Shown one piece after another: positions 531 through 21,808 of a DNA stretch of 64,000 nt. The translations under genes were made by a program, and so were the position numbers. Source of the stretch: an uncultured Bdellovibrionales bacterium (GTDB taxonomy: Bacteria > Patescibacteriota > Minisyncoccia > Moranbacterales > GWC2-37-73); NCBI GenBank assembly GCA_964609855.1, contig CAZSTB010000007.1, forward strand, positions 94-64,093, written 5' to 3'. Under the pieces are notes generated by a model that saw nothing but the letters and a program-made list of their open reading frames with translations, made no database searches and was not told where the DNA came from. Positions within the stretch are counted from its first letter, which is position 1; every line of letters begins with the position of its first letter.

Positions 531-1517
531 ATGAATATTGTAAAGTCAAAGATTATCGTGATTATGGGTCCCACCGCATCCGGAAAGTCTGATGCGGCCA
601 TTAAGCTTGCCAAGCGGTTCAATGGGGAGGTTATTTCAGCCGATAGCCGCCAGATATACCGCAAAATGGACATTGGAACCGGGAAAGTGCCTAAAGACGC
701 CAGAAATCCCGATTCGGAAGACGGATATTTTTCAGAAGGAATAAGACACCACCTGATTGACGTGGCAGAGCCGAACGAAGATTTCAACATATCCCATTTC
801 AAAAAAATGGCTCTGGAAGTCATCGAAGAAATACTGAATAAAGGAAAACTCCCCATCATTTGCGGAGGAACAGGCTTTTGGATCCAAGCCATTACGGACA
901 ATTTGAATCTGCCCAAGGTTGCTCCGAATGAAAAACTTCGACATGAACTGGACAAATTCTCAGCAGCAGAACTTTTTGAAAAGCTTGCCAAACTTGATCC
1001 CGAGCGCGCTGAAAATATTGATAAGCAAAACAAATACCGTCTTGTGCGAGCATTGGAAATTATTGATGCAATCGGGAAAGTCCCGGCTCTCAAGAAAGAT
1101 TGTCATCCTGAACTTGTTTCAGGATCTGGACCAGGAAAGATTCTGAAACAAGTTCAGAATGACAGAAAAGAGTACGACTTTTTGCAAATAGGCATCAATG
1201 TTTCACGAGAAATTCTGAATGCAAAAATAAAAAAACGTTTAGATGAAAGATTTGAGCTTGGCATGATCGAAGAGGTTGAAAATCTGCACAAAAATGGCGT
1301 TTCTTACGAATGGATGGAAAAGATTGGACTGGAATATCGCTGGATAGCTAGATTTTTGCAAAATAAAATTTCACTTGAAGAAATGAAAGAAAAATTGTAT
1401 TTCGATATCATTCATTATGCCAAACGTCAGATGACATGGTTTGGAAGAAATAAAAAAATACAGTGGCTTAAAAATTACACCGGAATAGAAAAATTAGTGG
1501 AAAAATTTTTGTTATAA
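531..1517 (+). CDS. miaA: tRNA dimethylallyltransferase MiaA, carrying an in-frame palindromic-element insertion (peptide ..DCHPELVSGSGPGKILKQVQNDRKE..)
   Basis: 328 aa; P-loop 'IMGPTASGKS', 'ADSRQIYRKMDIGTGK' MiaA signature. Confidence 0.9.
   Translation: MNIVKSKIIVIMGPTASGKSDAAIKLAKRFNGEVISADSRQIYRKMDIGTGKVPKDARNPDSEDGYFSEGIRHHLIDVAEPNEDFNISHFKKMALEVIEEILNKGKLPIICGGTGFWIQAITDNLNLPKVAPNEKLRHELDKFSAAELFEKLAKLDPERAENIDKQNKYRLVRALEIIDAIGKVPALKKDCHPELVSGSGPGKILKQVQNDRKEYDFLQIGINVSREILNAKIKKRLDERFELGMIEEVENLHKNGVSYEWMEKIGLEYRWIARFLQNKISLEEMKEKLYFDIIHYAKRQMTWFGRNKKIQWLKNYTGIEKLVEKFLL
1101..1164 (+). repeat. Palindromic repeat element copy A (TGTCAT...ATGACA terminal inverted repeats, two hairpins), inserted in-frame in miaA
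   Basis: tgtcatcctgaacttgtttcaggatctggaccaggaaagattctgaaacaagttcagaatgaca; same 5' arm as copies at 5717, 11853, 19240 and 21495. Confidence 0.7.
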
Positions 1518-1525
1518 AAAGTTAG

Positions 1526-1556
1526 GGGTCGAAACATTAATTTCGACCCCTTTTGT
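1526..1556 (+). terminator. Rho-independent terminator after miaA
   Basis: ggggtcgaaa-cattaa-tttcgacccc followed by ttttgtttt. Confidence 0.6.
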
Positions 1557-2436
1557 TTTCTACTTCGCCAAGTCAACTACGTACCCAACAGATTGCCGAG
1601 GGCTGTCTGTCGTGAGTATCCTCCAAACGTAGTTGCACCTGAACAAGAACAGTCACAACACAAGCTTTCGCGCTTCAATGACATCGGCGCCTTGGATACA
1701 ATACTAGGGCTAAGCGTCCAGTCACCATCGTACAATACCGCCTTGCAATTCCTGCACCCCTTCTCAAAGCTGCTCGCATTTTCAGCCATGACCCACCCCC
1801 TTTTTCAGATCTGATGAATTACTTTCAGAACAAGAAGAACACACTACCTTGCAGTCATCTGGCAAATAAACCAAGGGCGCACCATAACAATGATCCATGT
1901 CACCAGGCAAAGATGAAACACCAAAGCCCTTACCAAAGTCGAGATTAAAGCATTTCACGCATTGAATAATTTTCTTCTTATCCTCATTGTTTGCCACGTG
2001 ACACCCCCTATTTTTGAAAGTTATTGTCGCAATAAATATTGTTAAGGAGCTTCTCTGACTATTCGCACTCCCGAATGTTAAAAAAATCGGAAGTGACAAC
2101 AAAAAAAAATCGCCATCACTGGCGATTCTCAAAACACAAAACTGTTTTTTGCTTTTTTCTGAAAGATATTCTTTTGGGGAGTTTTTATCTTTATCATTCT
2201 TTAATCATACACCAAAAATCAACAAAAATCAATACTAATTATCCACAACCTATTACAATAACTGCCGCTATTGACAAAATTAAAAAGAACTGTTACAAAT
2301 CAATGTTACCAAATATGATATGATCTTTAACAAAGGAGACTAAAGAAGAACGATTGCCTGATATTCCCAAGGAAAAGATTGAAAATATTCAATCACAAGC
2401 AGTTTCAGCAGTCACCTCAATCGCCAGGAGGAATGT

Positions 2437-2781
2437 ATGAATTTTTCATCTACCATAGGATCAATAAAAAATGGCCTGGTAAGGAAAGATCCCAGGTTCG
2501 TCCTGCTCATGCTCAAGGCCAATGCAGATGTGGAAAAATTGATAAAGTTCACATCCATTGAAATAAGTGGAAAACACTACAATCTCTTATCGGTTTTTGA
2601 AAAAGCCGCCAAAACCCAAGGCCTGGCATTTTCAGATGCCATCCTGCAAGCAAGAAAGAACTGCACCGCCTTGCTTGAATTTCCTGTTGAAATAACAACT
2701 GGCCAAGTTGTGGCCTACCGCATCGAGAAAAAATCAACAAAGTTTCATTTTACCCTAAAAAGGGATCATCAGGACAGTTAA
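2437..2781 (+). CDS. Hypothetical protein (114 aa)
   Basis: ORF preceded by AGGAGGA RBS 5 nt upstream of ATG; followed by bidirectional terminator. Confidence 0.45.
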   Translation: MNFSSTIGSIKNGLVRKDPRFVLLMLKANADVEKLIKFTSIEISGKHYNLLSVFEKAAKTQGLAFSDAILQARKNCTALLEFPVEITTGQVVAYRIEKKSTKFHFTLKRDHQDS

Positions 2782-2821
2782 GCTCTTTCCTTTTGATGGG
2801 AGCGATATACCAAAAAGCGAG

Positions 2822-2852
2822 ACCTCGTGAACAAACGAGTCTCGCTTTTAAA
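2822..2852. terminator. Bidirectional intrinsic terminator between convergent genes
   Basis: aagcgagac-ctcgtgaacaaacgag-tctcgctttt with T-runs on both strands. Confidence 0.55.
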
Positions 2853-2866
2853 ATATGCAAAAATTT

Positions 2867-3643
2867 CTAAGCAGCCTCACTGGAAGTAAATTCTTGATCT
2901 TGCTTACTTTCATTGGACACCTTATATTTTGCAATCTCATTGCGCAATTTCAACAAATCAGCTTTTGCAGCCGAAAGTTCAAAATATTCACTGTCATTTA
3001 TTTCTTTCAAATCATTATCCATGCTTTCAACATACACGTTGCGAGCGATCAAAAAATCATCCAAATAAAGACCTTTCATTCTCTCATCAATTTCTTTTTC
3101 ATATTTTTCCCACATAGGAGCCAGGACGCCTTCCAGACATTCCCGCTTATAATGCTCAACCAAGGCCAAGATTCCTTTTGCCTGACTCTCTATTTGCTCA
3201 TAAGTTGGGGAGGAAATTTCCACCATGGATTCAGAAACTAAATCATCTTCACTCAATTCAATGATATCCTCAATTTGCTGCGATTTTGTGAACAATTCAG
3301 AAGATGAAAGTCCACACTCATGCATAATCATTTTAATGACTGTTGCAACTTTTTCCTTGGAAACTCTTACTTGGTCGCTATCATTCAAATTAGCTTCAAA
3401 ATGTTTAGATTCATTCAAAACGCTCTGCACTATGTCTTTGCCTACTTGTCTGATCTTTTCGGTATCAAAGCCAGGCTGCTGTTTTTTGGGCAGAATCTCA
3501 TTGACAATCTTTGTCCTCAGCTCTTTTTGAACATTATCAAGCCAAGTCACGTAGCCCTTTTCACTCAAGGATTTACCGTTAGCTTCAACATAGATGAAAG
3601 CTTGCTTAGGCTCTTCTTTTCCCTTAAATATGCTTTTGAACAT
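2867..3643 (-). CDS. Hypothetical acidic protein (258 aa)
   Basis: Long ORF with uniform coding-like composition, Glu/Asp-rich; no recognisable motif. Confidence 0.55.
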   Translation of the reverse strand: MFKSIFKGKEEPKQAFIYVEANGKSLSEKGYVTWLDNVQKELRTKIVNEILPKKQQPGFDTEKIRQVGKDIVQSVLNESKHFEANLNDSDQVRVSKEKVATVIKMIMHECGLSSSELFTKSQQIEDIIELSEDDLVSESMVEISSPTYEQIESQAKGILALVEHYKRECLEGVLAPMWEKYEKEIDERMKGLYLDDFLIARNVYVESMDNDLKEINDSEYFELSAAKADLLKLRNEIAKYKVSNESKQDQEFTSSEAA

Positions 3644-3702
3644 ACTTTTTATTCGTTAAGATTGTATCTTATATTATACACCTATTTTTACTTTTTGTCA
3701 AA

Positions 3703-5199
3703 CTATCCCAATTTTTGCTTCAGCATTTCCATTACCATCTGCGGATTAGCTTTCCCTCCTGATTGCTTCATGACTTGCCCCATCAAAAATTTAAGCGCGT
3801 TCTCTTTGCCGGCTTTGTAGTCTTCTACTGATTGCGCATTAGCCTCCAGGACTGCATCCACGGCCTTTTCAAGCTCGCCAGTGTCATTCACCTGCCCCAA
3901 GTTCTTTTCTTCAATTATATGTGAGGGATCGCCACCAGTGTGGTACATTTCTTTTAGCACGATTTGTGCTGCAGAAGAATTTATTTTCCCGTCAGCCACA
4001 ATGCCGATAAGTTCCGCATAATTTTCCGGCGTAATTTTCAGATCGCGAATGTCATGATTATTTTCAGCCAAATGTTTTCTGACTTCGGAAATCAGATAAT
4101 TCACTGCTAGCTTAATAGCTTTTTCTTCAGCAACTGAAATCTCATGAGAAGCAATTTTTTCTTTAAGCTCACTGATAACTTGTTCAAAATATTCCGCCAA
4201 GTCAGATTCAGCAGTGATGATTGCAATATCATCAACATTTAAACCATATTCCTCAGTAAATCTTTTCTCCTTAGCACTTGGAAGCTCTGGAAGTTTGGCA
4301 CGTAAACTTTCCACATACTGCGCAGTAAATTCCATTGGTGGAATATCTGGTTCAGGGAAGTAGCGATAATCATGAGCAGATTCTTTTTTGCGCTGAGAAA
4401 CAGTCACGTTCTTCACACTGTCCCAACCGCGAGTTTCCTGCACAATTTTTTCTCCATTTTCCAACATTTCACTCTGGCGCTCAATTTCATAGTTGATCGC
4501 TTTCTCCACAAAGCGGAAAGAGTTGATATTTTTCACTTCAACCTTTGTTCCAGAAAGCTTAGGCTCGCCCTCTTTATGCAAGGAAAGATTTACTTCGCAG
4601 CGCATATTACCTTTCTCCATGTCAGCATCTGAAATTCCCAGGTAGCGACAAATCTGCTGCAATTTAGTGCAGAAAATTCTTGATTGTTCCCCATTTTCAA
4701 TATCAGGTTCAGTCACGAGCTCCATTAATGGCACCCCGGCGCGGTTAAAGTCCACCAGGGTGTGATCTGCGCCCTCAGGATGAACAAGCTTGCCAGTATC
4801 TTCCTCTAGGTGGATTCTGGTTACTCCAATTTTCTTAATTTCCTGTTTTCCATTTTCACCAGTAACCGTAATATCCATATGACCGAGCCCACAAAGAGGC
4901 TGGTCAAACTGAGAAATCTGATAACCTTTCGGGATATCTGGATAGAAATAATTCTTGCGATCAAATTTTGATTTGAGATTCAACTCGCAATTAAGAGCCA
5001 ATCCAGCAAGCTGCACTGCTTCAATAGCTTTCTCATTTGGCACAGGCAAAGTTCCGGGCTGCGCTGTGCAAACCGGACAGATATGAATGTTAGGTTTTTT
5101 TTCATGGCCAAGAGAATTCTTGCAAGAGCAAAACATTTTAGAGCTTGTCTTAAGTTCTACATGAACCTCCATACCTATCACTGGAATATATTTTGTCAT
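3703..5199 (-). CDS. gatB: Asp/Glu-tRNA amidotransferase subunit B
   Basis: 498 aa; 'GMEVHVELKT..K.FC.C' N-terminus and GatB/YqeY C-terminal domain. Confidence 0.92.
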   Translation of the reverse strand: MTKYIPVIGMEVHVELKTSSKMFCSCKNSLGHEKKPNIHICPVCTAQPGTLPVPNEKAIEAVQLAGLALNCELNLKSKFDRKNYFYPDIPKGYQISQFDQPLCGLGHMDITVTGENGKQEIKKIGVTRIHLEEDTGKLVHPEGADHTLVDFNRAGVPLMELVTEPDIENGEQSRIFCTKLQQICRYLGISDADMEKGNMRCEVNLSLHKEGEPKLSGTKVEVKNINSFRFVEKAINYEIERQSEMLENGEKIVQETRGWDSVKNVTVSQRKKESAHDYRYFPEPDIPPMEFTAQYVESLRAKLPELPSAKEKRFTEEYGLNVDDIAIITAESDLAEYFEQVISELKEKIASHEISVAEEKAIKLAVNYLISEVRKHLAENNHDIRDLKITPENYAELIGIVADGKINSSAAQIVLKEMYHTGGDPSHIIEEKNLGQVNDTGELEKAVDAVLEANAQSVEDYKAGKENALKFLMGQVMKQSGGKANPQMVMEMLKQKLG

Positions 5200-5373
5200 A
5201 TGCGTATATGTTAACTTTAGATAATATATAAATTTTATTGCAAATTATGTACTCAAATTTTTAATTTTTAATTTAAAATTTTTAATCAATTTCCAATGAA
5301 TAAATTTCCAATTTTAAAAAAATTTCACCGCTCATTCATTTCAAATTTCAAATTAAAAATTTCAAATTCCGCA

Positions 5374-5703
5374 CTAGCGGTTGTCTCCCTCTCCATGCAC
5401 CAGATCCCTTTCTCTTCTACTTTTTATTTTTTCCAAATTGCCGGTTGCCACGTCCTCCAACGACAAATCAAATTCTGAAGCAATTTGCGACAAATACCAA
5501 AGCACATCTCCCAATTCCTTCTTGACCTCCTCTCTCGATTGATCGTCCACCATTCCATTTTTATCTCTCAAAATTTTCTTCACTTTTTCAGCCACTTCAC
5601 CTGTCTCACCAGCCAGCCCGATTGTTGGAAAAGAAAAATTGTTTCCCAAGCCTGGATAGATTGCATTCTTGCGAGATTCTTTCTGATATTCATTGAAATT
5701 CAT
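5374..5703 (-). CDS. MazG-like nucleoside triphosphate pyrophosphohydrolase (small single-domain)
   Basis: 109 aa; 'GLAGETGEVAEKVKK', 'ELGDVLWYL' MazG/EEXXE-type motifs. Confidence 0.75.
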   Translation of the reverse strand: MNFNEYQKESRKNAIYPGLGNNFSFPTIGLAGETGEVAEKVKKILRDKNGMVDDQSREEVKKELGDVLWYLSQIASEFDLSLEDVATGNLEKIKSRRERDLVHGEGDNR

Positions 5704-5716
5704 AACAAAATGCTAT

Positions 5717-5774
5717 TGTCATCCTGAACTTGTTTCAGGATCTGGGTGGATTCCGGATCAAGACCGGAATGACA
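5717..5774 (+). repeat. Palindromic repeat element copy B (intergenic, 14 bp upstream of the MazG-like start)
   Basis: tgtcatcctgaacttgtttcaggatctgggtggattccggatcaagaccggaatgaca. Confidence 0.6.
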
Positions 5775-5788
5775 ATGTAGATTTTTTA

Positions 5789-6214
5789 TCATCTTACACC
5801 AGTGCTCCCAAATGCTCCTGCTCCCCTATTCGTATTTTCCAATTCTTCAACTTCTTCAATTTCCGGAATCTCAACTTTCTGAAAAAGGACTTGGGCGATC
5901 TTTTGACCTTTTCCGATAACATAATCCTCCTGTCCCAGATTCACCAATCCAATAAACCATTCTCCCGTATAATTGCTATCAATAACACCTCCTAAAGTTT
6001 TTATGCCACTTTTTTGAGAAATACCGCTCTTATCCCAGATAAGTCCAGCATATCCAGCAGGCATTCCAATTGCGATTCCCGTCTGACATGAAATTCTTTC
6101 ACTCGGTTTCAAAACGGCATCCTGAGTTGAATAAAGATCCATACCAACATCACCCTTTAAGGCAAACTTTGGAGCTATGGCATCGGGATGAATTTTTTTA
6201 ATTTGAATTTTCAT
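5789..6214 (-). CDS. dut: dUTP diphosphatase
   Basis: 141 aa; 'AGYAGLIWDKSGIS...GVIDSNYTGE' dUTPase motifs. Confidence 0.9.
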   Translation of the reverse strand: MKIQIKKIHPDAIAPKFALKGDVGMDLYSTQDAVLKPSERISCQTGIAIGMPAGYAGLIWDKSGISQKSGIKTLGGVIDSNYTGEWFIGLVNLGQEDYVIGKGQKIAQVLFQKVEIPEIEEVEELENTNRGAGAFGSTGVR

Positions 6215-6714
6215 TTTGTTAACTCCAAAAAAGTATAATTGAAATTTTCGTCACTACTCTTTCTTTCACTAACCACTGTTTTAAATTCGCCGTATTCCGG
6301 AAAAAAAGTATCTGCATCAAATTTGCCATCAACTATCGTTAGATATAATTTATCAGTAAATCGCATTGCTTGAGTGTAAATTTGACCTCCACCAATAATA
6401 AATATTTCATCTCTTTCGATCTCACTAGCTTTACTTATTGCATCTTCAATTGAATTAGCAACAACAATTCCTTCAGCTTTAAAATTTTCATCTCTGGTGA
6501 TTACAATGTTTGTTCGATTTGGCAACGGCCTTCCGATAGACTCAAAAGTCTTTTTTCCCATAATAATTACATGACCAGAAGTAAGCTCCTTGAAGTATTT
6601 GAAGTCTTCAGGAATATGCCAAAGCAATTGGTTACTTTTTCCAATTTCCCTCTGTGCGCCAATGGCACATACAATGCTAAAGATAGGTTTTCCTGATTTT
6701 TTCATGACTTGCAA
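6211..6714 (-). CDS. folA: Dihydrofolate reductase
   Basis: 167 aa; 'IGKSNQLLWHIPEDFKYFKELTSGHVIIMGKKTFESIG' DHFR signature; 4-bp overlap with dut. Confidence 0.9.
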   Translation of the reverse strand: MQVMKKSGKPIFSIVCAIGAQREIGKSNQLLWHIPEDFKYFKELTSGHVIIMGKKTFESIGRPLPNRTNIVITRDENFKAEGIVVANSIEDAISKASEIERDEIFIIGGGQIYTQAMRFTDKLYLTIVDGKFDADTFFPEYGEFKTVVSERKSSDENFNYTFLELTK

Positions 6715-6789
6715 GGACTTATTGATTTTTTTTCATGATAACACACAAAAACAAGCATGACAAAGGCATTTTATCTCTTGCTATTGCTT

Positions 6790-6818
6790 TTTTTACCAAA
6801 TAATGCTATAATTTACAA
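6790..6818 (+). promoter_or_regulatory. Sigma70-like promoter TTGCTT-17-TATAAT upstream of the HIT-like gene
   Basis: ttgctt tttttaccaaataatgc tataat. Confidence 0.45.
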
Positions 6819-6872
6819 TCGTCCCTTGAGAAGTGAATAGTATGTATCTAACATCACCATTTAAGCGTTTGA

Positions 6873-10126: not shown

Positions 10127-11104
10127 CTATATTGGAGTTGGGATCTTAAACCAAGGCTCTGTTGGTTTATAATCTTCAAGAACAAAATCTTCTTTACGAA
10201 AATCTTGAATTCTTGTCACTTCCCTATTTAGCTTTAGTTTTACAGTTGGAAATGCACCCGGCTTGATAGAAAGAATCTTATCTACAGATTCAGTCTGAAC
10301 ATCGTAGTAATGAGGATTAGAAATAAAATGAGTATACTTCACAAACTTATAACCCAATATATGCGCAACCATCAACCCAAGTGCGGACCATTCAATCAGA
10401 TTAAATTGAAGCCCCACTGGCACGTCAGCTGAACGCTGTGTGTGTGTCATTTCCAGTTCTTTCTGCTTATCAAAAAGAACAAAATGAACGAAATTACCAT
10501 GACATGGAGCAACAACCACTTCCCTCTTGAATCCCTGCTCTTCATCCCCCATGGATAGTGGCGGATTCCAAGTTGTCAAAACATGGGTTCGCAAAAAAGG
10601 TGCTTTTTCCATTTGTCTTTGAACTGCCGTAACTTGATCAAATTGTCCTTTAGTGGACTGAAAATGTGCCAAAGATGCTCCGTATGATCCATTACCCAAA
10701 TCACCTTCTTCCAATCCGAAGTTTGCACATTTTTCCTTGGTAACCCAATCCTTCCAAAAAATAGACGGGCAACCGAATTCCTTGAGGCCGCTCAGGGTGC
10801 TTTGTCCATTTAAGAATGCAATCAATTCTCCGATTGCACCATAAAAAGATTTACTAAGATCGCGCTCAGTCAAAACAGGAAAACCATTGGCCATATCGTA
10901 TTGAAGCATGGCTCCAGTTATCTCTTTGGAATTCTGGTGTCCTGAATTAGCGTTTTCATTGAGTCTGGCATGGATAGGCATCTTATCCTTTCCGGTTGTT
11001 TTAATTTTTTTCAGTAATTCTTGATACTGCAAATCTGGAATTCTCTCACTATATGGCAGGTAATCGACACCGCCTTCATTTTTATTTTCAGTATCATTGA
11101 TCAT
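10127..11104 (-). CDS. thyA: Thymidylate synthase family protein (divergent ThyA-like, extended N-terminus)
   Basis: 325 aa; 'GFPVLTERD', 'ELIAFLNGQST', 'TTWNP', catalytic 'APCH', 'QRSADVPVGLQFNL' align with ThyA core; Asn retained in the FN(I/L) motif. Confidence 0.7.
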   Translation of the reverse strand: MINDTENKNEGGVDYLPYSERIPDLQYQELLKKIKTTGKDKMPIHARLNENANSGHQNSKEITGAMLQYDMANGFPVLTERDLSKSFYGAIGELIAFLNGQSTLSGLKEFGCPSIFWKDWVTKEKCANFGLEEGDLGNGSYGASLAHFQSTKGQFDQVTAVQRQMEKAPFLRTHVLTTWNPPLSMGDEEQGFKREVVVAPCHGNFVHFVLFDKQKELEMTHTQRSADVPVGLQFNLIEWSALGLMVAHILGYKFVKYTHFISNPHYYDVQTESVDKILSIKPGAFPTVKLKLNREVTRIQDFRKEDFVLEDYKPTEPWFKIPTPI

Positions 11105-11852: not shown

Positions 11853-11905
11853 TGTCATCCTGAACTTTTCAAGATCTAGATTCCGAGTCCAAGTCCGGAA
11901 TGACA
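11853..11905 (+). repeat. Palindromic repeat element copy C (between rplA stop and its terminator; degenerate first hairpin)
   Basis: tgtcatcctgaacttttcaagatctagattccgagtccaagtccggaatgaca. Confidence 0.55.
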
Positions 11906-13841: not shown

Positions 13842-13945
13842 TTTAATAATGCGATTCGAATCTACGAATGAACATGCGAATCAACGAATGAAATTTTCAT
13901 TCGAGTCATTCGAGTCCATTTTCGTGTCATTCGAATCGGCTCAGA

Positions 13946-14134
13946 TTATTTGATAATATATGTTCTTAAAATATATCCGAAAGCCGAATCTAATCCTCCG
14001 AGAAATGCCGCAACTACAATGCTTACGCCTACCACTAGCAATGTATAATTCAACGTCTGCTTTTTTGTCGGCCAATTAACCTTTAACATCTCAGCCTTCG
14101 CTTCCAAAATGAATTTTGTAATTTTTTGAAACAT
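13946..14134 (-). CDS. secE: Preprotein translocase subunit SecE
   Basis: 62 aa; 'KVNWPTKKQ' followed by a single TM helix; position upstream of nusG. Confidence 0.8.
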   Translation of the reverse strand: MFQKITKFILEAKAEMLKVNWPTKKQTLNYTLLVVGVSIVVAAFLGGLDSAFGYILRTYIIK

Positions 14135-14374
14135 CTTCTTTATGCGATACCAAACTACATGAACCTAAATGCAGTAAACATCTTTTCTTGTACTTTTCGT
14201 ACCGATTTTTTAGAGTTTTTTAAAAAGCCCCGGGAGGCTTCTTCTTGCTTTAAATGTACACTACTCCCGCTTTTTTGTCAAGATAAAGCCAAATTTATCG
14301 AAATTAAACAAATAATGCCTCTGGGTATGGACAAATATTTTAGTTCTTGTATAATAACTTCTGTAGCTCATTAT

Positions 14375-14448
14375 GGGCCGGTAGCTCACCTGGTAGAGCG
14401 CCTCACTTGCACTGAGGAGGTAGCGGGTTCAAGTCCTGTCCGGTCCAC
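14375..14448 (+). tRNA. tRNA-Ala (anticodon UGC)
   Basis: Acceptor GGGCCGG/CCGGTCC with G3:U70, D-arm GCTC..GAGC, anticodon loop CTTGCAC, T-loop TTCAAGT. Confidence 0.8.
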
Positions 14449-14518
14449 CCAATATTAATAATTTGAAATTTCAAATTTTAAATTTAAAATTAAGGAGTCG
14501 CTTTGCGACGGTTTTTTA

Positions 14519-14592
14519 GGGCTTATAGCTCAGTTGGTTAGAGCGCGTCACTGATAATGACGAGGTCTCTGGTTCAAATCCAGATAAGCCCA
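14519..14592 (+). tRNA. tRNA-Ile (anticodon GAU)
   Basis: GGGCTTATAGCTCAGTTGGTTAGAGC..., anticodon loop CTGATAA, T-loop GGTTCAAATCC, acceptor 3' ATAAGCCC. Confidence 0.85.
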
Positions 14593-14634
14593 CCTAAATA
14601 CTACGAAATGGCCAGGGCTCGCCCGCCGCGGCGG

Positions 14635-14676: not shown

Positions 14677-14683
14677 TTTAATC

Positions 14684-14707: not shown

Positions 14708-14831
14708 TAAACATTGACATCGGTTATTAAAGGAATATATTTGAGATATCGGCGCTACTAAGAGGAGGTGAAAATTCGCCTAAATAAGCCGCGACTGATA
14801 AGAGCACTTTCAAAACTTGACGGAGGAAACC

Positions 14832-15125: not shown

Positions 15126-15152
15126 CAGGCAACCAGCACTAAGGAGGCAGTT

Positions 15153-15368: not shown

Positions 15369-15375
15369 AGAAAGC

Positions 15376-15412
15376 TAGAGCCAGACAATCATTGTCTGGC
15401 TCTCTTTATTTT
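15376..15412. terminator. Intrinsic terminator hairpin between convergent genes
   Basis: gagccagacaatcattgtctggctc followed by tttatttt. Confidence 0.5.
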
Positions 15413-15426
15413 CATTTTGCTAATAG

Positions 15427-16344
15427 CTATTTCTTCAAAAACTTCTGCACACTATGTGCAGCAATTGCACCCTCGGAAGCGGCAGTTATAATTTGCTTGA
15501 ATTTATCAGAACCATTTGTGATATCACCTGCCGCCCAGATTCCTTTCTCACTAGTTCTGCCTGATGGATCTATTTTAATATAACCCTCTTCATCAATTTC
15601 AATTTCTAGGTCCTTCGCGAGATCAGTTAATGGTACGCTCCCAATTTCTGCAAAGACACCGTCGACTTTTAAAATATCTGAATTTTCATAAGGATTATCC
15701 AAAACTACAGACTCAACATTTTCGCTTCCCCTTATTTCTTTAAGGTTAGTATTATATAACATCTTGATTTTAGGATTTTTCTCGATTGCCGCACCCCAGA
15801 AAGATTCACACCTAAGCTTATCTCCTCGATAAATCATATAAACTTTTTCAGCAATATCGCCCAAAAACACTGCCGCGCCAGCTGCACTGTCATTTCCACC
15901 AATTATTGCCACGGTCTTTCCTTTATAGAAAAATCCGTCACATGTCGCACAATATGAGACACCCTTACCGGCAAACTCCTTTTCTCCAGGAATTCCCAAG
16001 TGTCGATGCTTAGTTCCCATTGCAAGTAATACGGTTTTAGCTTCTATTTTTTTTCCATCACTTACAAATAAAGTGAATGTCTCGCCAGTCCTTTTAATTT
16101 CATCCACTAATGCAGGAATAATATCACTGTCGTAACTCTTGACGTGCTCACTGGCTTTCATCGCATATTCATAGCCTTTAATTTTTTCCGTGCCGAGCCA
16201 ATTGCCAATTTCATGAGTCTGCGTCGTCAGACCACCTGCAACACCTCCAATTACAACATTTTTGATGCCGTAGCGAGACGCATATACCGAAGCGCTAAGT
16301 CCGGCCGGACCTGCGCCAACAATAGCTAAGTCAAAAATTTCCAT
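15427..16344 (-). CDS. trxB: Thioredoxin-disulfide reductase
   Basis: 305 aa; FAD 'GAGPAG', redox 'CATCDG', NADPH 'GGGDSA'-like motif. Confidence 0.9.
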   Translation of the reverse strand: MEIFDLAIVGAGPAGLSASVYASRYGIKNVVIGGVAGGLTTQTHEIGNWLGTEKIKGYEYAMKASEHVKSYDSDIIPALVDEIKRTGETFTLFVSDGKKIEAKTVLLAMGTKHRHLGIPGEKEFAGKGVSYCATCDGFFYKGKTVAIIGGNDSAAGAAVFLGDIAEKVYMIYRGDKLRCESFWGAAIEKNPKIKMLYNTNLKEIRGSENVESVVLDNPYENSDILKVDGVFAEIGSVPLTDLAKDLEIEIDEEGYIKIDPSGRTSEKGIWAAGDITNGSDKFKQIITAASEGAIAAHSVQKFLKK

Positions 16345-16424
16345 ATAGTAAAATATTTTTTATAATTATATTTATTGACTAAATTTAAATGTCAAAATCT
16401 AAATTTCAAACAAAATTCTCAAAT

Positions 16425-16467
16425 CCTAATTTTTAGTCATTTTATCACTTGGATTTGAGATTTTTCC
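16425..16467 (-). repeat. Conserved stop-codon-flanking motif (copy 1 of 3), GGGAAAAATCTCAAATCC... immediately 3' of the CsoR-like gene
   Basis: Similar to 42515-42554 and 54358-54399. Confidence 0.4.
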
Positions 16468-16746
16468 CTATTTCATCTTGAAAAGACTCTTGAGATATTT
16501 CTCATCAAACTTTGCCTTTCCTTCCCATTTGCAAACGAAATCATTCTTAAGCATTTCAATGCCTAACATGGAAACAGCTTCTCGAATTGCGGTAACCTGC
16601 GTAATCACGTCGATGCATTCCTTTTTCTCTTCAACCATGCGGCGAATACCTTTGAGTTGACCTTCAATTCTAGAAATCCGATTTATAATTTTTTCTTGCG
16701 CCAAAGCGATATCTCTCTCTTTAATACTTTTCTTGGAAACTACCAT
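16468..16746 (-). CDS. CsoR/RcnR-family (DUF156) metal- or persulfide-sensing transcriptional repressor
   Basis: 92 aa; 'INRISRIEGQLKGIRRMVEE...C..V..Q..A...A' helical bundle with conserved Cys. Confidence 0.8.
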   Translation of the reverse strand: MVVSKKSIKERDIALAQEKIINRISRIEGQLKGIRRMVEEKKECIDVITQVTAIREAVSMLGIEMLKNDFVCKWEGKAKFDEKYLKSLFKMK

Positions 16747-16767
16747 AAATTTTTTAACTATTATCGA

Positions 16768-16971
16768 TTACTCCTGCTTCCTTCTAATTGTACTGATATC
16801 TAAAAATTTGTATAAAAAGCAAAATCCCATTGTAAAAGTTACGGTCATCATTAGTGCCAACACGTAAAGCACTAGTCTTGCCCAGCCATCAACAAGGAAA
16901 CTTCCTGCAGCTAAGAAAACCAACACTAATATGAAACGGATAATCCGATCCCAAATTCCTACATTTTGCAT
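16768..16971 (-). CDS. Small inner-membrane protein, DUF2892/YgaP-like
   Basis: 67 aa; 'WDRIIRFILVLVFLAAG' motif followed by 2 TM helices. Confidence 0.55.
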   Translation of the reverse strand: MQNVGIWDRIIRFILVLVFLAAGSFLVDGWARLVLYVLALMMTVTFTMGFCFLYKFLDISTIRRKQE

Positions 16972-17009
16972 AATTATTTTTATATTGAAAAATTAAATTT
17001 TTATGCTTA

Positions 17010-17032
17010 TTATACCCTACAGGGGTATAATA
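17010..17032. promoter_or_regulatory. Predicted CsoR-type operator (inverted repeat TATACCCTACAGGGGTATA) upstream of the DUF2892-csoR-like operon
   Basis: GC-core palindrome resembling CsoR operators (TACCC..GGGTA). Confidence 0.45.
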
Positions 17033-17125
17033 ATTCAAAAAACTGCTTCCGTCAAATAATTCCTTGTGAATATAAAAATTTTTATTCAACGAAAATAAGT
17101 ATGGTTTTTGGCATTAATTAAGTGC

Positions 17126-17881
17126 CTACTTTTTCCTACCTACTAATACAATATTCCTCCCGTCAGGAATTTCACATTTCTCAATTTCAAAGCCAGCTTT
17201 TTCAAAAAGAACTTTCAACTCACCCTTAGTGAATGCGTGATGGAATCGCTCGAATTTCTTGCCATCATTATCCGTAAAAGTAATCAAGCAATCATTCCAA
17301 TCAAGGTTTTTCACTACACTATCGTTTAGTGAACCGGCACTACGAATGCCGGACATGCGAATCAACATTTTAAAAATTTTATTTTTCCAATTTTTCAGGA
17401 TATTTTTTAAATATTTTTTTTGCCAAAGATACCAAACCGTTATCACAACATATCCCCCACTTTTCGTTTTATTATAAAGTTCATTCGCGATACTTGAGCG
17501 ATATTTTTTAGATGGAAAATGATGAAAAACAGCTATGGAATAAACGGTATTGAAAAAAACATCATCAAATGGTAGAGTAGTTTGGATAGGGTCAAGTTTT
17601 GAAAATTCAATATTGACCGCAGAATAGCTTTCAGTCGCCAAATCAATGAGTCCTTGTGACACGTCTGCTCCGTAATATTCAATATCCCTATCACCGATTA
17701 ACTCCAACAGTCGCCCATTACCACATCCGTAGTCAAGAATTTTTCCACCGTCATGGGAATAATCTTTAATAAATTCCAATCCACGCCAAAAATGTTTTCG
17801 TGTCTGCGAAAACTTACCAGATATCAAATCGTATCCAGACTCAGTTTGTGAAAGTATTTTATTTACTGTTTCTTGCTTCAT
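17126..17881 (-). CDS. Class I SAM-dependent methyltransferase
   Basis: 251 aa; motif I 'ILDYGCGNGRL'. Confidence 0.8.
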   Translation of the reverse strand: MKQETVNKILSQTESGYDLISGKFSQTRKHFWRGLEFIKDYSHDGGKILDYGCGNGRLLELIGDRDIEYYGADVSQGLIDLATESYSAVNIEFSKLDPIQTTLPFDDVFFNTVYSIAVFHHFPSKKYRSSIANELYNKTKSGGYVVITVWYLWQKKYLKNILKNWKNKIFKMLIRMSGIRSAGSLNDSVVKNLDWNDCLITFTDNDGKKFERFHHAFTKGELKVLFEKAGFEIEKCEIPDGRNIVLVGRKK

Positions 17882-17895
17882 AATTAAAAATTCCT

Positions 17896-19605
17896 ATGAA
17901 TTCAGCTTACGACAATTATATAATTTCCGCAATTAAAGAGCTTCCTGAAACTCAGGCGGAGTTTTTGCAACTCAAGAAGAAACTTTCAAAGCAGTACGCC
18001 TTACCACTTCCAACCAATACTGATCTACGCGACAGATATAATACTTTAGTGGAAGAAAAAAGGGTTACACCGTCAAAATCTTTTGAAGCAATCCTGCTCA
18101 GTCGTGCCATCCGCACCCAGTCAGGCGTCGCAGTTGTGGCTGTGCTGACCAAGTCATATCCTTGCCCTGGGAAATGCATATATTGTCCAACTGAAAAAGA
18201 CATGCCTAAAAGCTATCTTTCCAATGAACCCGCTGTCATGCGCGCTATAGATTCCCATTTCGATCCATATCTGCAAATGCAAAACCGCTTGCGATCGTTG
18301 GAAATAAACGGTCACAAGACTGACAAGATCGAGCTCATCGTGATGGGAGGAACTTTTTCATTTCTGCCAAAAGCATACCAGAAAAAATTTATTCTCAGAT
18401 GCTTCCAAGCTGCCAATGAATACGGGAGAAAGAAGTCATCAGTCATCGGTAATCAGTCATCGGTAAAAATTTCAGCTGAAGAAAAATTAATAAAAGAACA
18501 GAAGAAAAATGAGAAGACAAAACACAGAATCATTGGTCTCACCCTAGAAACACGTCCGGATTATATCAATGAAGAAGAAATCGTAAGCTTCAGAAATCTC
18601 GGATGCACTAGAGTCGAACTTGGAGTGCAAAGCATCTATGACGATGTGCTTGAACTCAACAAGCGCGGGCACTTGGTCAGCGAAACAGTTCGCGCAACGA
18701 AACTCTTGAAAGATGCAGGTTTCAAAATAAATTTCCACATGATGCCAGGACTGCCGGGTTCAACGCCTGCCCGCGATTTCAAGATGTTCAAGCAGCTTTT
18801 TACCAGTCAAGATTTCCAACCGGACATGCTTAAAATTTATCCAACCGTAGTTCTGAAAGATAGCCTCCTGTACAACATGTGGAAGAAAGGACAATATAAA
18901 CCACTGAGCAATAAGACTTTTGAAAAACTTGTCTTGAAAATCAAAAACGAAACCATCACACCGTACGTCCGAATCGCACGCCTTGTTCGAGATGTGCCAA
19001 CATCTTCAATCATTGCCGGCCCAACCATTTCCAATCTCAGACAAATCATCATTCCACAGTCTAAATGCCCATGTATTCGCTGTCGAGAAGTACGTGAAGG
19101 ATATGAAGTCAAGGAAGAAATTGTTTTGGACCGCATCGATTATTCAGCATCAGATGGAAAAGAAATCTTCCTTCAGTACGTTTCACCTGATAAGAAAAAA
19201 CTTTTTGCCCTTTTGCGTCTGCGCATCCCCTCCTCTTCATGTCATCCTGAACTTGTTTCAGGATCTAGGGAAATACTTATGCCTAGCAAGATGCTGAAAC
19301 AAGTTCAGCATGACAACAATGATAACGGGAATGACAAACTACATAACCAATTGCCTGCACTTAAAAATGCAGCTTTAATCCGCGAAGTCCACACCTACGG
19401 AAAACTTACGCAAATAGACAAACAAAATTCAACTTCTCCGCAACACATCGGTCTTGGAAAAAAACTATTGATTGAAGCTGAAAGAATAGCAAAGAAAGAA
19501 TTCGGACTGAATAAAATTGTAGTAATTTCAGGGGTAGGAGTCAGAGGATATTACAGGAAGTCAGGATATCGCCTGCAGGATACGTACATGGCAAAGAATT
19601 TGTAG
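17896..19605 (+). CDS. Elp3-like radical SAM + GNAT acetyltransferase (tRNA modification), with in-frame palindromic-element insertion between the two domains
   Basis: 569 aa; radical-SAM 'CPGKCIYCP', C-terminal GNAT 'HIGLGKKLLIEAE...'; inserted peptide 'SSCHPELVSGSREILMPSKMLKQVQHDNNDNGNDK'. Confidence 0.8.
   Translation: MNSAYDNYIISAIKELPETQAEFLQLKKKLSKQYALPLPTNTDLRDRYNTLVEEKRVTPSKSFEAILLSRAIRTQSGVAVVAVLTKSYPCPGKCIYCPTEKDMPKSYLSNEPAVMRAIDSHFDPYLQMQNRLRSLEINGHKTDKIELIVMGGTFSFLPKAYQKKFILRCFQAANEYGRKKSSVIGNQSSVKISAEEKLIKEQKKNEKTKHRIIGLTLETRPDYINEEEIVSFRNLGCTRVELGVQSIYDDVLELNKRGHLVSETVRATKLLKDAGFKINFHMMPGLPGSTPARDFKMFKQLFTSQDFQPDMLKIYPTVVLKDSLLYNMWKKGQYKPLSNKTFEKLVLKIKNETITPYVRIARLVRDVPTSSIIAGPTISNLRQIIIPQSKCPCIRCREVREGYEVKEEIVLDRIDYSASDGKEIFLQYVSPDKKKLFALLRLRIPSSSCHPELVSGSREILMPSKMLKQVQHDNNDNGNDKLHNQLPALKNAALIREVHTYGKLTQIDKQNSTSPQHIGLGKKLLIEAERIAKKEFGLNKIVVISGVGVRGYYRKSGYRLQDTYMAKNL
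19240..19336 (+). repeat. Palindromic repeat element copy D (composite, in-frame in Elp3-like gene)
   Basis: tgtcatcctgaacttgtttcaggatctaggg...gctgaaacaagttcagcatgaca...cgggaatgaca. Confidence 0.6.
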
Positions 19606-19717
19606 CTTTGCGAAACTTAATACACTTACAAATTTTGAATTTTGAATTTTTAATTTTGAATCAATTTTCAATGATTAAATTTCTAATTTTAAAACAATAA
19701 TTTTAAAATACAACTCT

Positions 19718-20110
19718 ATGCAAAAAATAATCATCGCTTCCGGACCAGTTATCGTGAAAAATGAAAAAGTTCTTCTCGATATTCAAGGCGAAGATAATTT
19801 CTGGAAATTTTGCGGAGGAAAAGTCAAAGAAAATGAAACTCTGAAACAAACCGCGATTCGACGAGCCAAAGAAGAGTTAGGAATAGATATTCAAATTAAA
19901 AATACAACGCCATTTCTACTACATGTCACCAAAGAAAAGGATGGGGATAATTCAGATGTAATACTAGTTCATTTCTTGTCTGATTTTTCTGGAGAGATAA
20001 CTCCGAGCGAGGAAATAAGAAAATGGCAATGGCATGATATCAGCAATCTTCCTGATAATATCGCTCCCAATATTTTGCCGACTTTAAAACATTTTGGCTT
20101 CATTAAATGA
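19718..20110 (+). CDS. Nudix hydrolase
   Basis: 130 aa; Nudix box 'GGKVKENETLKQTAIRRAKEELGI'. Confidence 0.75.
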   Translation: MQKIIIASGPVIVKNEKVLLDIQGEDNFWKFCGGKVKENETLKQTAIRRAKEELGIDIQIKNTTPFLLHVTKEKDGDNSDVILVHFLSDFSGEITPSEEIRKWQWHDISNLPDNIAPNILPTLKHFGFIK

Positions 20111-20121
20111 TTTTTTGAGTT

Positions 20122-20520
20122 ATGCAAAAAATTATAAATGCCTCAGGTCCAGTCATAGTTGAAAATAATAAGGTTCTGCTTAACCAACATGGTGATACTT
20201 ATTTTTGGAAATTTTGCGGTGGCAAGGTTGAAGACTATGAATTAAATTTGATCCAAACAGCTAGGCGCGAAGCCAAAGAAGAAATGGGTATCGAAATTGA
20301 AATTTTGGATAATATTCCTTATTTTTTTCACACAAGCAAAGAGACTGAAGATGGCGTAGTTGATATTGTTCTTACACATTTTCTCGCAAAACGCATAGGC
20401 AAAATTAATCCAAACAAACTTATCAGAAAATGGGAATGGATTCCTCTGAAAGAATTAAGTAATGAAGATCTAGCGCCGAACATAATTCCAACTCTTAAAC
20501 ATTTCGGATTCATAAAATAA
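20122..20520 (+). CDS. Nudix hydrolase (tandem paralog)
   Basis: 132 aa; same architecture and C-terminal 'PTLKHFGFIK' as upstream gene. Confidence 0.75.
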   Translation: MQKIINASGPVIVENNKVLLNQHGDTYFWKFCGGKVEDYELNLIQTARREAKEEMGIEIEILDNIPYFFHTSKETEDGVVDIVLTHFLAKRIGKINPNKLIRKWEWIPLKELSNEDLAPNIIPTLKHFGFIK

Positions 20521-20584
20521 AACATCTTCAAAACGATTCGCACACTACCATATGAAGTAGTATGGTAGTGAAGAGAATACAAAA

Positions 20585-20608
20585 AATTACGTAATTAATT
20601 ACGTAATT
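20585..20608. repeat. Perfect 24-bp palindrome AATTACGTAATTAATTACGTAATT
   Basis: Self-complementary; second copy at 52967-52994. Confidence 0.5.
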
Positions 20609-20668
20609 TTTATTTTTTAATATATATTTTTCACATTTGTTTTAAATTTCGGAATAGAGTGCCATTAC

Positions 20669-21808
20669 TCAGGAAGCATCTCCCGCCAGTTGTCCGCAGG
20701 CGGCTTTGATTTCTTCGCCGAGACTCTTTCTAATTGTCGCACTGATGCGATATTTCTCCAATTCCATTTTGAAATTTTGCGTGCGCGTCTTGGATGATGG
20801 AACAAGCTGTTCGCTTGTAGTGTTGTAGCGGATCAAGTTTACATGCAGAAGTTGTGTGTGCCCTATGGAACCTATGAATTCTGAAAGTTTTCTAGCATCT
20901 AGTGCAGTATCATTCACCCCATCAAGCATAATGTATTCCAAAAAAACTTTTCTTTTTGTTACCTGAAAATATTCCTGCAAAGCTTTCCTGAGAGATTCCA
21001 AATTGTCTTTCTTGTTGACGGGCATGTAATGTGAACGTTTTTCGTCGCTGGCAAAATGAAGAGAGATGGCCAAATTAACTTGCGGAAATTCATTAGCCAT
21101 CTTTTCTATGCCGCTCACAATTCCAGAAGTTGAAACAGAAAGACTACGAGAACCAAAGCCGTACAGTTTTTCATCCGTCAAATTCCTGATACTTTCGGAA
21201 ACTTCCGGCCAATTATTAAATGGCTCCCCCATGCCCATATACACGATGTTTTTAACATCGCAATTTTCAATTTCTAATTTACAATTTTCAATGTCATGGA
21301 AGTTCTTTTTTAAATATTGTTTCCAGAATAAAACCTGATCAGCAATTTCCTCAGCAGTAAGGTTTCTTTTGAACCCCATTTTTCCAGTGGCACAAAATCT
21401 GCAACCCATTGCGCAGCCAACCTGACATGAAATGCAAGCCGACCATATTCCCGGTTTAGGTGAAATCAAAACCGTTTCAATAAGATCACCCTCATTGTCA
21501 TTCCGGACTTGATCCGGAATCTGTGATTGAGCGGTAACTTTAGATCCTGAAACAAGTTCAGGATGACATGTTCTTAATCGCAACAATGCCTTGATGGATT
21601 GCCCGTCAGCGGCAACTAAAACTTTCTCCACCTCAAAAGAAAGTAATTTCAATTCTTTTTCCATTTTCTCCCGCAAATCCTTGGAAAGGGTTGTAATATC
21701 AGAAAATGACGAAACACTATCCTGAAAAATAGCTTTCTGGATCTGCCCCAGGCGAAATTTTGGCAAATTATTGTCCTGTAAAAATTGTTCGAGTTTTAAA
21801 ATATTCAT
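20669..21808 (-). CDS. rlmN: 23S rRNA (A2503-C2)/tRNA methyltransferase RlmN (radical SAM), with in-frame palindromic-element insertion
   Basis: 379 aa; 'CISCQVGCAMGCRFCATG' and C-terminal 'AACGQL'; inserted peptide 'RTCHPELVSGSKVTAQSQIPDQVRNDNEGD'. Confidence 0.88.
   Translation of the reverse strand: MNILKLEQFLQDNNLPKFRLGQIQKAIFQDSVSSFSDITTLSKDLREKMEKELKLLSFEVEKVLVAADGQSIKALLRLRTCHPELVSGSKVTAQSQIPDQVRNDNEGDLIETVLISPKPGIWSACISCQVGCAMGCRFCATGKMGFKRNLTAEEIADQVLFWKQYLKKNFHDIENCKLEIENCDVKNIVYMGMGEPFNNWPEVSESIRNLTDEKLYGFGSRSLSVSTSGIVSGIEKMANEFPQVNLAISLHFASDEKRSHYMPVNKKDNLESLRKALQEYFQVTKRKVFLEYIMLDGVNDTALDARKLSEFIGSIGHTQLLHVNLIRYNTTSEQLVPSSKTRTQNFKMELEKYRISATIRKSLGEEIKAACGQLAGDAS
21495..21567 (-). 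repeat. Palindromic repeat element copy E (in-frame in rlmN, same orientation relative to gene as in miaA/Elp3)
   Basis: RC reads tgtcatcctgaacttgtttcaggatctaaagttaccgctcaatcacagattccggatcaagtccggaatgacaa. Confidence 0.6.

Follow-up and report, generated by a model that had tools for sequence, protein, structure and literature searches.

How does one short palindrome come to lie, in frame, in three different genes of a single bacterium, and what, if anything, moves it there? The question is raised by a 64-kb window, the whole stretch of DNA analysed here (64,000 nucleotides of contig CAZSTB010000007.1, from an uncultured bacterium of the Moranbacterales within the Patescibacteriota, with a GC content of 39%), in which direct reading finds five elements that share the bounds TGTCAT...ATGACA. 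These elements are head-to-head dimers of repetitive extragenic palindromic (REP) units carrying a CGTC/TGTC tag; they are of the CGTC-2-like type, a known kind of repeat in a new host group, the Candidate Phyla Radiation (CPR). The explanation that best covers the observations as a whole, and that is considered probable, is that they are mobile CGTC REP dimers, tolerated in the loops of the proteins they enter, with a GIY-YIG nuclease as their candidate partner.

The elements are built from two kinds of arm. Arm A, a 25-mer (TGTCATCCTGAACTTGTTTCAGGAT), has six matches in the window at up to three mismatches and none in 100 dinucleotide shuffles; arm B (TTCCGG-N7-CCGGAATGACA) has three matches against 0.11 expected, the one in dimer 3 carrying three mismatches. 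Dimer 1 (1101-1164, plus strand; arm A 1101-1127, a 10-nt spacer, arm A' 1138-1164) lies inside miaA, dimer 4 (19240-19315, plus strand; arm A 19240-19266, a 22-nt spacer, arm A' 19289-19315) inside elp3, and dimer 5 (21496-21568, minus strand; arm A 21568-21544, arm B 21519-21496) inside rlmN, all three in frame. Dimer 2 (5717-5774, plus strand; arm A 5717-5741, arm B 5751-5774) is intergenic, 14 nt from the stop of dut and 13 nt from the start of a mazG-like gene, both on the minus strand, so placed that it follows the former gene and precedes the latter. The degenerate dimer 3 (11853-11905, plus strand), whose A-like and B-like arms have both decayed, stands, as predicted, between the rplA stop codon (11911) and an intrinsic-terminator-like hairpin with a T-run that is 3' of both rplA and the dimer (11846-11819, minus strand). 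The predicted number of five copies is therefore correct, the fifth being shifted by one nucleotide, to 21496-21568 from 21495-21567. Copies 1 and 4 are A-A' dimers and copies 2, 3 and 5 are A-B dimers; all of them are confined to 22 kb of the window, and no further copy was found between 22 and 64 kb. Directly behind dimer 4, a 21-nt remnant (19316-19336, plus strand; ..GGGAATGACA; ..AACGGGAATGACA) represents the right end of an older B-type unit and encodes NNDNGND.

All ten arms begin with the tag TGTC, and the tags of all five dimers point outwards. The tagged hairpin arm reads TGTCATCCTGAACTTGTTTCAGGATC, with stems of ATCCTGAA/TTCAGGAT and ATTCCGG(A)/(T)CCGGAAT, a loop of CTTGT in arm A (TTTAT in the orthologues at loci L122 and L123) and of 5-7 nt in arm B, and a conserved C after the stem, which opens a tail of CTG or CTA in the window and CCA in high-GC hosts. 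Dimers 1 and 4 fold into long hairpins (z -8.0 and -8.8 as DNA, -9.0 and -7.2 as RNA, respectively), and the heterodimer copies 2 and 5 fold as two hairpins (z -3.4 to -4.2), which in dimer 2 are closed via tag pairing (-3.4 as DNA, -3.9 as RNA); the fold of dimer 3 is weak (-0.8 as DNA, -2.1 as RNA). At gathering thresholds, Rfam detects two tRNAs only and no RNA family over the elements. Other matches to GAATGACA or to the TGTCAT octamer (3882, 11610, 13925 and 47751) were checked and are not elements.

The original prediction compared these repeats with the Rickettsia palindromic elements (RPE) that Ogata et al. are said to have described in 2000 and 2002, which are likewise palindromic, lie in frame in conserved genes and are tolerated as surface segments; the window elements differ in having a CGTC-2-like hairpin and a free-living or episymbiotic CPR host instead of Rickettsia, and RPE-1 is longer than they are. 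The resemblance holds at the level of a superfamily, the CGTC-tagged REPs of Di Nocera, De Gregorio and Rocco (2013, BMC Genomics 14:522; PMC3733652), in which RPE-6 corresponds to CGTC-1 and RPE-4 to CGTC-4, and it rests on the equation made in that paper. Members of this superfamily carry a CGTC or TGTC tag (CCTC is a further variant), an 8-9-bp stem starting with AT, a 4-5-nt loop and a short tail (consensus CCA), occur in five phyla mainly as head-to-head dimers, and include intragenic units, among them a CGTC-2 unit inside a Sulfurovum gene, listed in the supplementary table, that encodes RHSELVSGS (PMC3733652). The window elements share with them, and with CGTC-2 especially, the tag, the AT-starting stem, the 5-nt loop, perhaps the short tail, the head-to-head arrangement (with spacers of 10-25 bp here and 20-100 bp there) and sites near gene 3' ends and inside open reading frames (ORFs), but depart from them in the sequence of the tail (CTG or CTA against CCA), in a Patescibacteria/CPR host that lies outside the five reported phyla, and in the intragenic share, which is three of five against about 11% in other low-GC hosts (8 of 75 instances of arm A in long ORFs, in low-GC loci of other phyla), an excess that is expected for a gene-dense genome. 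The 2013 paper reports no associated transposase or dedicated enzyme for CGTC REPs and does not mention GIY-YIG, whereas a GIY-YIG gene is found here between such arms in other genomes. No paper on in-frame palindromes in CPR, Patescibacteria or Parcubacteria was found, in line with the supposition of the original prediction that the elements are uncharacterised in such genomes; the family itself is known and is not specific to the lineage.

When about 186,000 species genomes were scanned with TCATNNTGAACTTGTTTCANNAT, at least 120 loci from many phyla proved to carry the 23-nt arm. By record title, the matches listed include Gracilibacteria and other Patescibacteria, many Bacteroidota, Sphingomonadales and other Proteobacteria, Treponema, Nitrospirota, Nitrospinota, Elusimicrobiota, Ignavibacteriota, Bacillota, Melainabacteria and Sulfurovaceae. 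Among the same listed matches, 135 of 147 arm instances can pair at the two free stem positions, where GC/GC, CC/GG, TC/GA or AC/GT occur; the flanking sequence is (C/T)G|TCAT..AT|C, and an inverted partner arm, often with another hairpin and ending in ATGAC(A/G), lies 10-80 nt away. In 85 dimers from these other genomes (loci L001-L120), whose termini read YYGTCAT...ATGACRR, C or T precedes GTC in 79; flank matches of 2-4 nt are no commoner than in shuffles, giving no sign that the target site is duplicated, and, apart from the YY by which the terminal palindrome is extended, no target motif emerged. One locus (L013, 2673-2695), from a metagenome-assembled genome (MAG) labelled Nanoarchaeota, has the same arm followed by other tagged hairpins, and could be either a mis-binned CPR contig or a case of cross-domain spread.

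The three host genes, identified with Pfam together with the neighbouring dut, MazG-like and rplA genes, are miaA (531-1517, plus strand), coding for tRNA dimethylallyltransferase, elp3 (17896-19605, plus strand), coding for a bacterial Elp3-type radical-SAM/GNAT tRNA-modification enzyme, and rlmN (20669-21808, minus strand), coding for the 23S rRNA/tRNA adenine C2 methyltransferase. That all three encode tRNA/rRNA-modification enzymes is possibly due to chance; REPs have also been reported in tRNA synthetase and pseudouridine synthase genes (PMC3733652). Dimer 1 encodes residues 191-211 of MiaA, CHPELVSGSGPGKILKQVQND, for a net insertion of 63 bp, dimer 4 encodes CHPELVSGSREILMPSKMLKQVQHD in Elp3, and dimer 5 encodes CHPELVSGSKVTAQSQIPDQVRND in RlmN, so that in translation all three proteins contain CHPELVSGS and then a hydrophilic stretch ending in ..QV(Q/R)(N/H)D, just as had been claimed; the insert junctions would be spanned by peptides such as ..KKDCHPELVSGS.. 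and ..QVQNDRKEY... The further claim that the copies have one orientation and one frame stands insofar as the CC/GG variant of arm A is on the 5' side in all three genes, in the TGT-CAT frame, but carries little weight for a dimer that is nearly symmetric. Calling the three genes essential, as the original prediction did, is an overstatement, judged by E. coli; they are conserved RNA-modification genes.

Reading through such an element imposes constraints on its length. As predicted, arm A is open in frames 1 (CHPELVSG) and 2 (VILNLFQD) and has a TGA in frame 3, and its reverse is open only in the frame that reads ..ILKQVQ.D; to be read through, an A-A' or A-B dimer must hence measure 3n+1 from the first T to the last A. 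Copies 1, 4 and 5, with 64, 76 and 73 nt, are all of this length. The lengths of the 85 dimers from other genomes are also skewed towards 3n+1, with 42, 26 and 17 in classes 1, 0 and 2; dimers of the 3n+1 class have no stop in the Cys-His frame, and the skew may reflect either many copies in coding DNA or a preferred spacer length. Copies that land in coding DNA would survive only in a permissive loop, at a 3n length and in a stop-free frame, which would be the TGT-CAT frame that begins with Cys-His.

The positions of the inserts agree with their tolerance as loops. In MiaA, the insert lies between the helix at 168-181 and the strand at 215-222, in RlmN it occupies the loop of ..SIKALLRL-x-DGxLIETVLIS, and in Elp3 it falls within the KAT/GNAT domain at the C-terminus, where it separates the LLRLR strand from IREVHTYG, and not between the radical-SAM and GNAT domains, where the original prediction had placed it. 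Solved structures of MiaA, RlmN/Cfr and Elp3 align on both sides of the inserts and lack the insert segment. Moreover, in an AlphaFold2 model of the window MiaA (mean pLDDT 80.5), residues 189-211 are the sole segment below 50, the insert being the only disordered stretch. The predicted accommodation of the inserts as surface loops is in line with both results, and the inserts are probably translated as disordered loops of 21-32 residues.

Comparison with relatives indicates that the elements come and go. The best matches of the window MiaA, Elp3 and RlmN are proteins from Candidatus Moranbacteria/Patescibacteria MAGs, with identical proteins on an NCBI contig of 64,367 bp, and trees and alignments were built with 120 homologues of each. 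The closest miaA relative (P0004, locus L124), with 83% nucleotide identity to the window gene, has an empty site that is exactly 63 bp shorter and reads AAGAAAGAC|AGAAAAGAG (..PLKKD|RKEY.., AAG AAA GAC|AGA AAA GAG), against ..KKD[CHPELVSGSGPGKILKQVQND]RKEY.. at the filled site of the window, and this junction has no target-site duplication beyond a GA(T/C) ambiguity. Another miaA gene (P0002, locus L123), with 72% identity, carries the element at the same junction as the window. The window gene is thus closer to the empty allele of L124 than to the filled allele of L123, so that the element must have been either lost precisely or gained a second time at this very position. Likewise, the nearest Elp3 orthologues (for example P0247 and P0244) lack the insert, and L205, a syntenic Moranbacteria locus, has the orthologous rplA terminator without copy 3. 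These observations (the empty miaA site, the Elp3 relatives devoid of the insert and the rplA locus) sustain the core of the original prediction, namely mobile palindromic mini-elements inserted cleanly in frame, for which it had recommended an alignment of orthologues. An assembly artefact is rejected, as the junctions recur in independent assemblies (L123, L205 and L206) and an exact empty allele exists.

Orthologous copies of the elp3 and rlmN dimers are present in L205 and L206, respectively, and these loci hold units of their own: a second elp3 dimer in L205 (12688-12761) and, in L206, a single arm B in rlmN (10964-10987) and a single intergenic arm A (6301-6324), so that occupancy varies gene by gene among relatives. 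More broadly, REP-dimer peptides occupy the same loops in at least 10 of 120 MiaA, at least 31 of 120 RlmN and at least 24 of 120 Elp3 orthologues. The filled orthologues carry several hairpin types, are scattered over the trees with empty sisters alongside, and are nearly always read in the Cys-His frame, with loop peptides such as CHPE(L/F)(V/I)SGS.., CHSERSVAESKNL..SVEMT, CHPERISQQ.., CHSGLDPES..FHGND and CHSELVSES..; Elp3 orthologues with B-type dimers end in ..FHGND|KLY at the site of the window remnant (19316-19336), and a second MiaA loop has frame-2 versions (VILSEIESR.., VIPSEATTPQ..). The original prediction regarded the same peptide at the same position in unrelated lineages as a sign of an ancestral protein segment. 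Same-position peptides do exist, but only within Moranbacteria, and their patchy pattern, their different hairpin types and the empty sisters argue for recurrent insertion and turnover and not for an ancestral segment.

The arms themselves are far more conserved than the genes around them. Between the window and its orthologues, 49 of 51 arm positions are identical in the miaA pair (L123; gene 71% nucleotide identity, spacer 6 of 12), 51 of 51 in the rlmN pair (L206; gene 75%, spacer 5 of 6 aligned after a 15-nt indel) and 45 of 46 in the elp3 pair (L205; gene 71%, spacer 14 of 24), that is, about 98% in arms against 71-75% in host genes (P about 1e-6 per pair) and about 50-58% in the two spacers that can be aligned over their full length, those of miaA and elp3. 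Near-invariant arms beside a diverging gene and spacer suggest recognition by a factor specific for their sequence or structure, or homogenisation by gene conversion between copies; in either case, the slow evolution of the arms points to an active maintenance process.

A candidate for such a factor emerges from the genes near arm A. Clustering of the ORFs within 2.5 kb of the arm in the 120 loci reveals no recurrent transposase-like family, and its only small recurrent neighbour is a GIY-YIG gene placed directly between or beside the arms. Four arm-adjacent GIY-YIG proteins, used as seeds, retrieved 80 related metagenomic loci, 75 of which could be evaluated. The proteins are about 100 aa long, match PF01541 (E = 6e-17) and keep the catalytic GIY..YIG, Arg, Glu and Asn, with Y7, Y18, G20, R28, E65 and N84 invariant; no NCBIfam equivalog corresponds to them, and we know of no function for this widespread family of small proteins. 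Tagged hairpin units occur at 5.6 per kb beside the gene against 0.41 per kb elsewhere, and an outward-tagged unit lies within 150 bp on both sides in 54 of the 75 loci, compared with 5 of 9,701 placements drawn at random within these loci. Two-sided arms are seen in 34 of 51 distinct flank contexts and involve at least 19 stem types. The order of the parts is the same throughout (YGTCAT-hairpin-ATCC.., 10-40 nt, ATG..ORF..stop, 0-25 nt, ..GGAT-hairpin-ATGACR) and the whole unit measures 335-546 bp; in 24 of the 54 loci the right arm itself contains the TGA stop, in two fixed registers, and in 36 of 54 the left and right arms are of the same type. With 45% against 23%, dispersed units are closer to the gene-flanking arms of their own locus than are arms from other loci.

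One of these units, at locus L188, comes from a Patescibacteria genome and encodes a protein (MFA5107694.1) annotated as 'GIY-YIG nuclease family protein [Patescibacteria group bacterium]', between TGTCATGCTGAACTTGTTTCAGCATC and GATCCTGAAACAAGTTCAGGATGACA; its right arm, GATCCTGAAACAAGTTCAGGATGACA, is the reverse complement of window arm A, and its left arm is a GC-stem variant, like arm A' of elp3. Arm-bracketed GIY-YIG units elsewhere, with L188 sharing the arm of the window, make the short window dimers look like ORF-less versions of them. No literature was found that links GIY-YIG genes with REPs, RAYTs, REPINs, MITEs or COG2827. In many of the GIY-YIG proteins, including those at L188 (4289-4312), L195 and L202, the final residues (..GDPETSSG, ..GDAETSSA, ..RDAEINSA) are encoded by the right REP arm; database protein ends are thus partly repeat-derived. 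A 23S_rRNA_IVP (four-helix-bundle) gene was considered as an alternative cargo and rejected, its L122 instance not being flanked by units.

These data suggest that GIY-YIG units and short dimers stand in an autonomous/MITE-like relationship (MITE, miniature inverted-repeat transposable element), and the chances seem roughly even that the trans-acting partner of the window dimers is the nuclease of about 100 aa, encoded elsewhere in the genome. Each unit comprises an unpaired YGTC tag, an 8-bp stem starting with AT, a 5-nt loop and a short tail, and two units inverted around a 10-25-nt spacer form a dimer; the dimers would be non-autonomous selfish DNA, prone to insertion and deletion without target-site duplication. 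The nuclease gene would sit inside a master unit of 335-546 bp with the same two REP arms as ends, from which the short dimers would derive, in the manner of MITEs, by lacking the ORF. The association of the gene with the arms is observed in other genomes, including one Patescibacteria genome; as to the chemistry of cleavage and mobilisation, which is wholly conjectural, the nuclease would nick or cut the tagged hairpin or a cruciform, after which the arms would be spread and made uniform through repair or copying. A broader and somewhat more tentative proposal is that CGTC-tagged REPs at large (the RPE-4/-6 type together with the CPR inserts) may be the ORF-less partners of an unrecognised arm-bracketed unit with a gene for a GIY-YIG nuclease of about 100 aa, which would constitute a second, evolutionarily independent nuclease-REP system, analogous to RAYT-REPIN (RAYT, REP-associated tyrosine transposase) though of another chemistry, extending from Alphaproteobacteria and Bacteroidota to Patescibacteria, with the nuclease dispersing and homogenising the arms, also where these lie in conserved RNA-modification genes.

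The proposed system can be set against three known ones. With REPIN-RAYT (Bertels & Rainey 2011; Nunvar 2010; Ton-Hoang 2012), it shares two inverted, hairpin-capable REPs that are non-autonomous and make no target-site duplication, a proposed partner gene flanked by the same REPs and often at a conserved chromosomal position, and an apparently long-term, largely vertical persistence, but its tag is (C/T)GTC instead of GTAG and its flanked gene codes for a GIY-YIG nuclease of about 100 aa instead of a Y1 HUH transposase, so that the chemistry would differ. Pairs of insertion sequences (IS) and MITEs also combine short ORF-less copies with a longer ORF-bearing unit that has common termini; here, in contrast, target-site duplications are absent, the ORF does not code for any known transposase and the long unit is only 335-546 bp. 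Lastly, free-standing GIY-YIG homing endonuclease genes have the same small catalytic domain (PF01541) with conserved catalytic residues, whereas the gene described here has no DNA-binding extension and no intron or intein context, is bracketed by hairpin-forming inverted repeats and is accompanied by hundreds of ORF-less copies.

Several points weigh against mobile dimers served by this nuclease. The window has no GIY-YIG gene by tblastn, Pfam scans of 37 window ORFs returned no GIY-YIG, Y1 transposase or other transposase, and no GIY-YIG gene was found in two other Moranbacteria loci (L205 and L206; 42 kb). To our knowledge, GIY-YIG nucleases have no strand-transfer activity, and a full transposition pathway is not evident. 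The four seed proteins were themselves found beside REPs, an ascertainment bias, and some of the GIY-YIG loci are at conserved chromosomal positions, the largest context clusters having 15, 7 and 4 members, which leaves fewer than 54 independent observations. In addition, recent independent insertions of the same master at the same site could also produce identical arms, and translation of the inserts is deduced from open frames and loop positions and not seen as protein.

The same architecture would also be expected if the GIY-YIG gene were a separate, selfish homing passenger that lands in the spacers of REP dimers, which spread by other means. GIY-YIG enzymes are classical homing endonucleases, the gene is invariably located in the spacer between two arms, the arms to its left and right frequently represent different stem variants, which is also the case in ordinary heterodimers (one type on both sides in 36 of 54 loci), and REPs are known as insertion targets of IS (background in PMC3733652). 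Against it stand the tight fusion of the ORF to the arm, the right one supplying the stop in two fixed registers in 24 of 54 loci, and the recurrence of this arrangement over at least 19 stem types and in 34 genomic contexts; several loci keep conserved positions in the manner of single-copy RAYTs instead of being scattered, and the dispersed units of a locus are nearer to the arms that flank its gene. This explanation is therefore considered unlikely, though it is the strongest of the alternatives.

Less likely again, and rather doubtful, is a REPIN-like nature of the dimers, with an IS200/IS605-type Y1 (HUH) transposase moving them in trans (a RAYT, or else a resident TnpA that works on single-stranded hairpins) and the GIY-YIG association being incidental. 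The pairing of inverted hairpin units, the conserved unpaired tag and the lack of a target-site duplication are all as in REPINs, mobilisation by a RAYT or another transposase is raised as a possibility by Di Nocera et al. (PMC3733652), and the source genome could hold such a gene beyond the window. Against it, the tag is (C/T)GTC and not GTAG, the published survey has no tyrosine-transposase gene flanked by CGTC units (PMC3733652), the scanned window ORFs include no such gene, and among the ORFs near arm A in the 120 loci the recurrent small neighbour is the GIY-YIG gene and not a transposase.

A structural role maintained by selection on the host, for instance in stabilising mRNA 3' ends, in aiding terminators or in DNA topology, with the intragenic copies as by-products, is very improbable as a full account. 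Two copies do follow genes closely on the 3' side, at co-transcribed sites, the hairpins are strong as RNA, arm conservation far exceeds a neutral rate, and roles of this kind have been proposed in the REP literature; but the copies are patchy among close relatives, with turnover of sites and with copy 3 decaying, a hairpin of -38 kcal/mol inside three ORFs brings no evident benefit, and the arrival of copies at new sites is left unexplained, so that such a role could only be an add-on to a mobility mechanism. Finally, a functional protein segment, either ancestral or favoured by convergent selection, is scarcely credible as an explanation of the shared peptide: the same type of peptide does recur at the same loop in many Moranbacteria orthologues, but the closest miaA relative has an exact empty site, the solved homologues lack the segment, the same DNA is also intergenic and in unrelated proteins and phyla, and it is the palindrome that is conserved, with a variable spacer and hence a variable peptide that is predicted to be disordered.

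Other repeats were observed in the same genes and elsewhere in the window. Heptanucleotide tandem repeats (AGTCATC, CAATTTT and TTGAATT/TTGGAAA; 4-5 copies) lie in frame in elp3 (18434-18461), rlmN (21261-21292) and tgt (35262-35329), and Moranbacteria orthologues have 7-residue periodic peptides (SHQSSVI, WSMEHGA, QDTRYKI, SCESSVK) in the same loops, which appear to be a second kind of tolerated junk. Hairpin-like inserts of other types (LPASLREALQTG, PPASRRRAASPRFEAG, PPRVDEQKSPRVEAG and NPPAGG) recur at several positions in Elp3 (P0245, P0258, P0301, P0308, P0340, P0345 and others) and RlmN (P0147 and P0196), suggesting further palindromic families in Moranbacteria proteins. Two perfect 30-bp palindromes, each made of two copies of AATTACGTAATT, may form an operator-like site: one (20582-20611) is just 3' of the rlmN stop, before the ORF at 20122-20520, and the other (52966-52995) overlaps the start codon of a TP_methylase gene (52995-53669, minus strand). 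The intergenic stretch 13860-13950 has a cluster of TCATTCGAG direct repeats facing inverted CGAATGA copies; although this cluster contains GTCATTCGA, it does not belong to the REP family. Adjacent genes for tRNA-Ala(TGC) and tRNA-Ile(GAT) (14374-14594) form a pair typical of rRNA operon spacers, and the window has no rRNA gene.

For the biology of these organisms, the phenomenon of protein-coding palindromes, best known from Rickettsia, is extended to the CPR, and particular loops of conserved RNA-modification enzymes turn out to be recurrent dumping grounds for selfish hairpin DNA. As regards annotation, repeats account for many of the 'variable regions' and spurious peptides of CPR proteins, and the finding also bears on the tolerance of junk in minimal genomes. 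The CGTC-tagged REP family is among the most widely spread repeats known, ranging from soil bacteria to ultra-small groundwater bacteria, and the question of which enzyme handles these REPs, open since 2013, now has a concrete and testable candidate in a tiny GIY-YIG nuclease.

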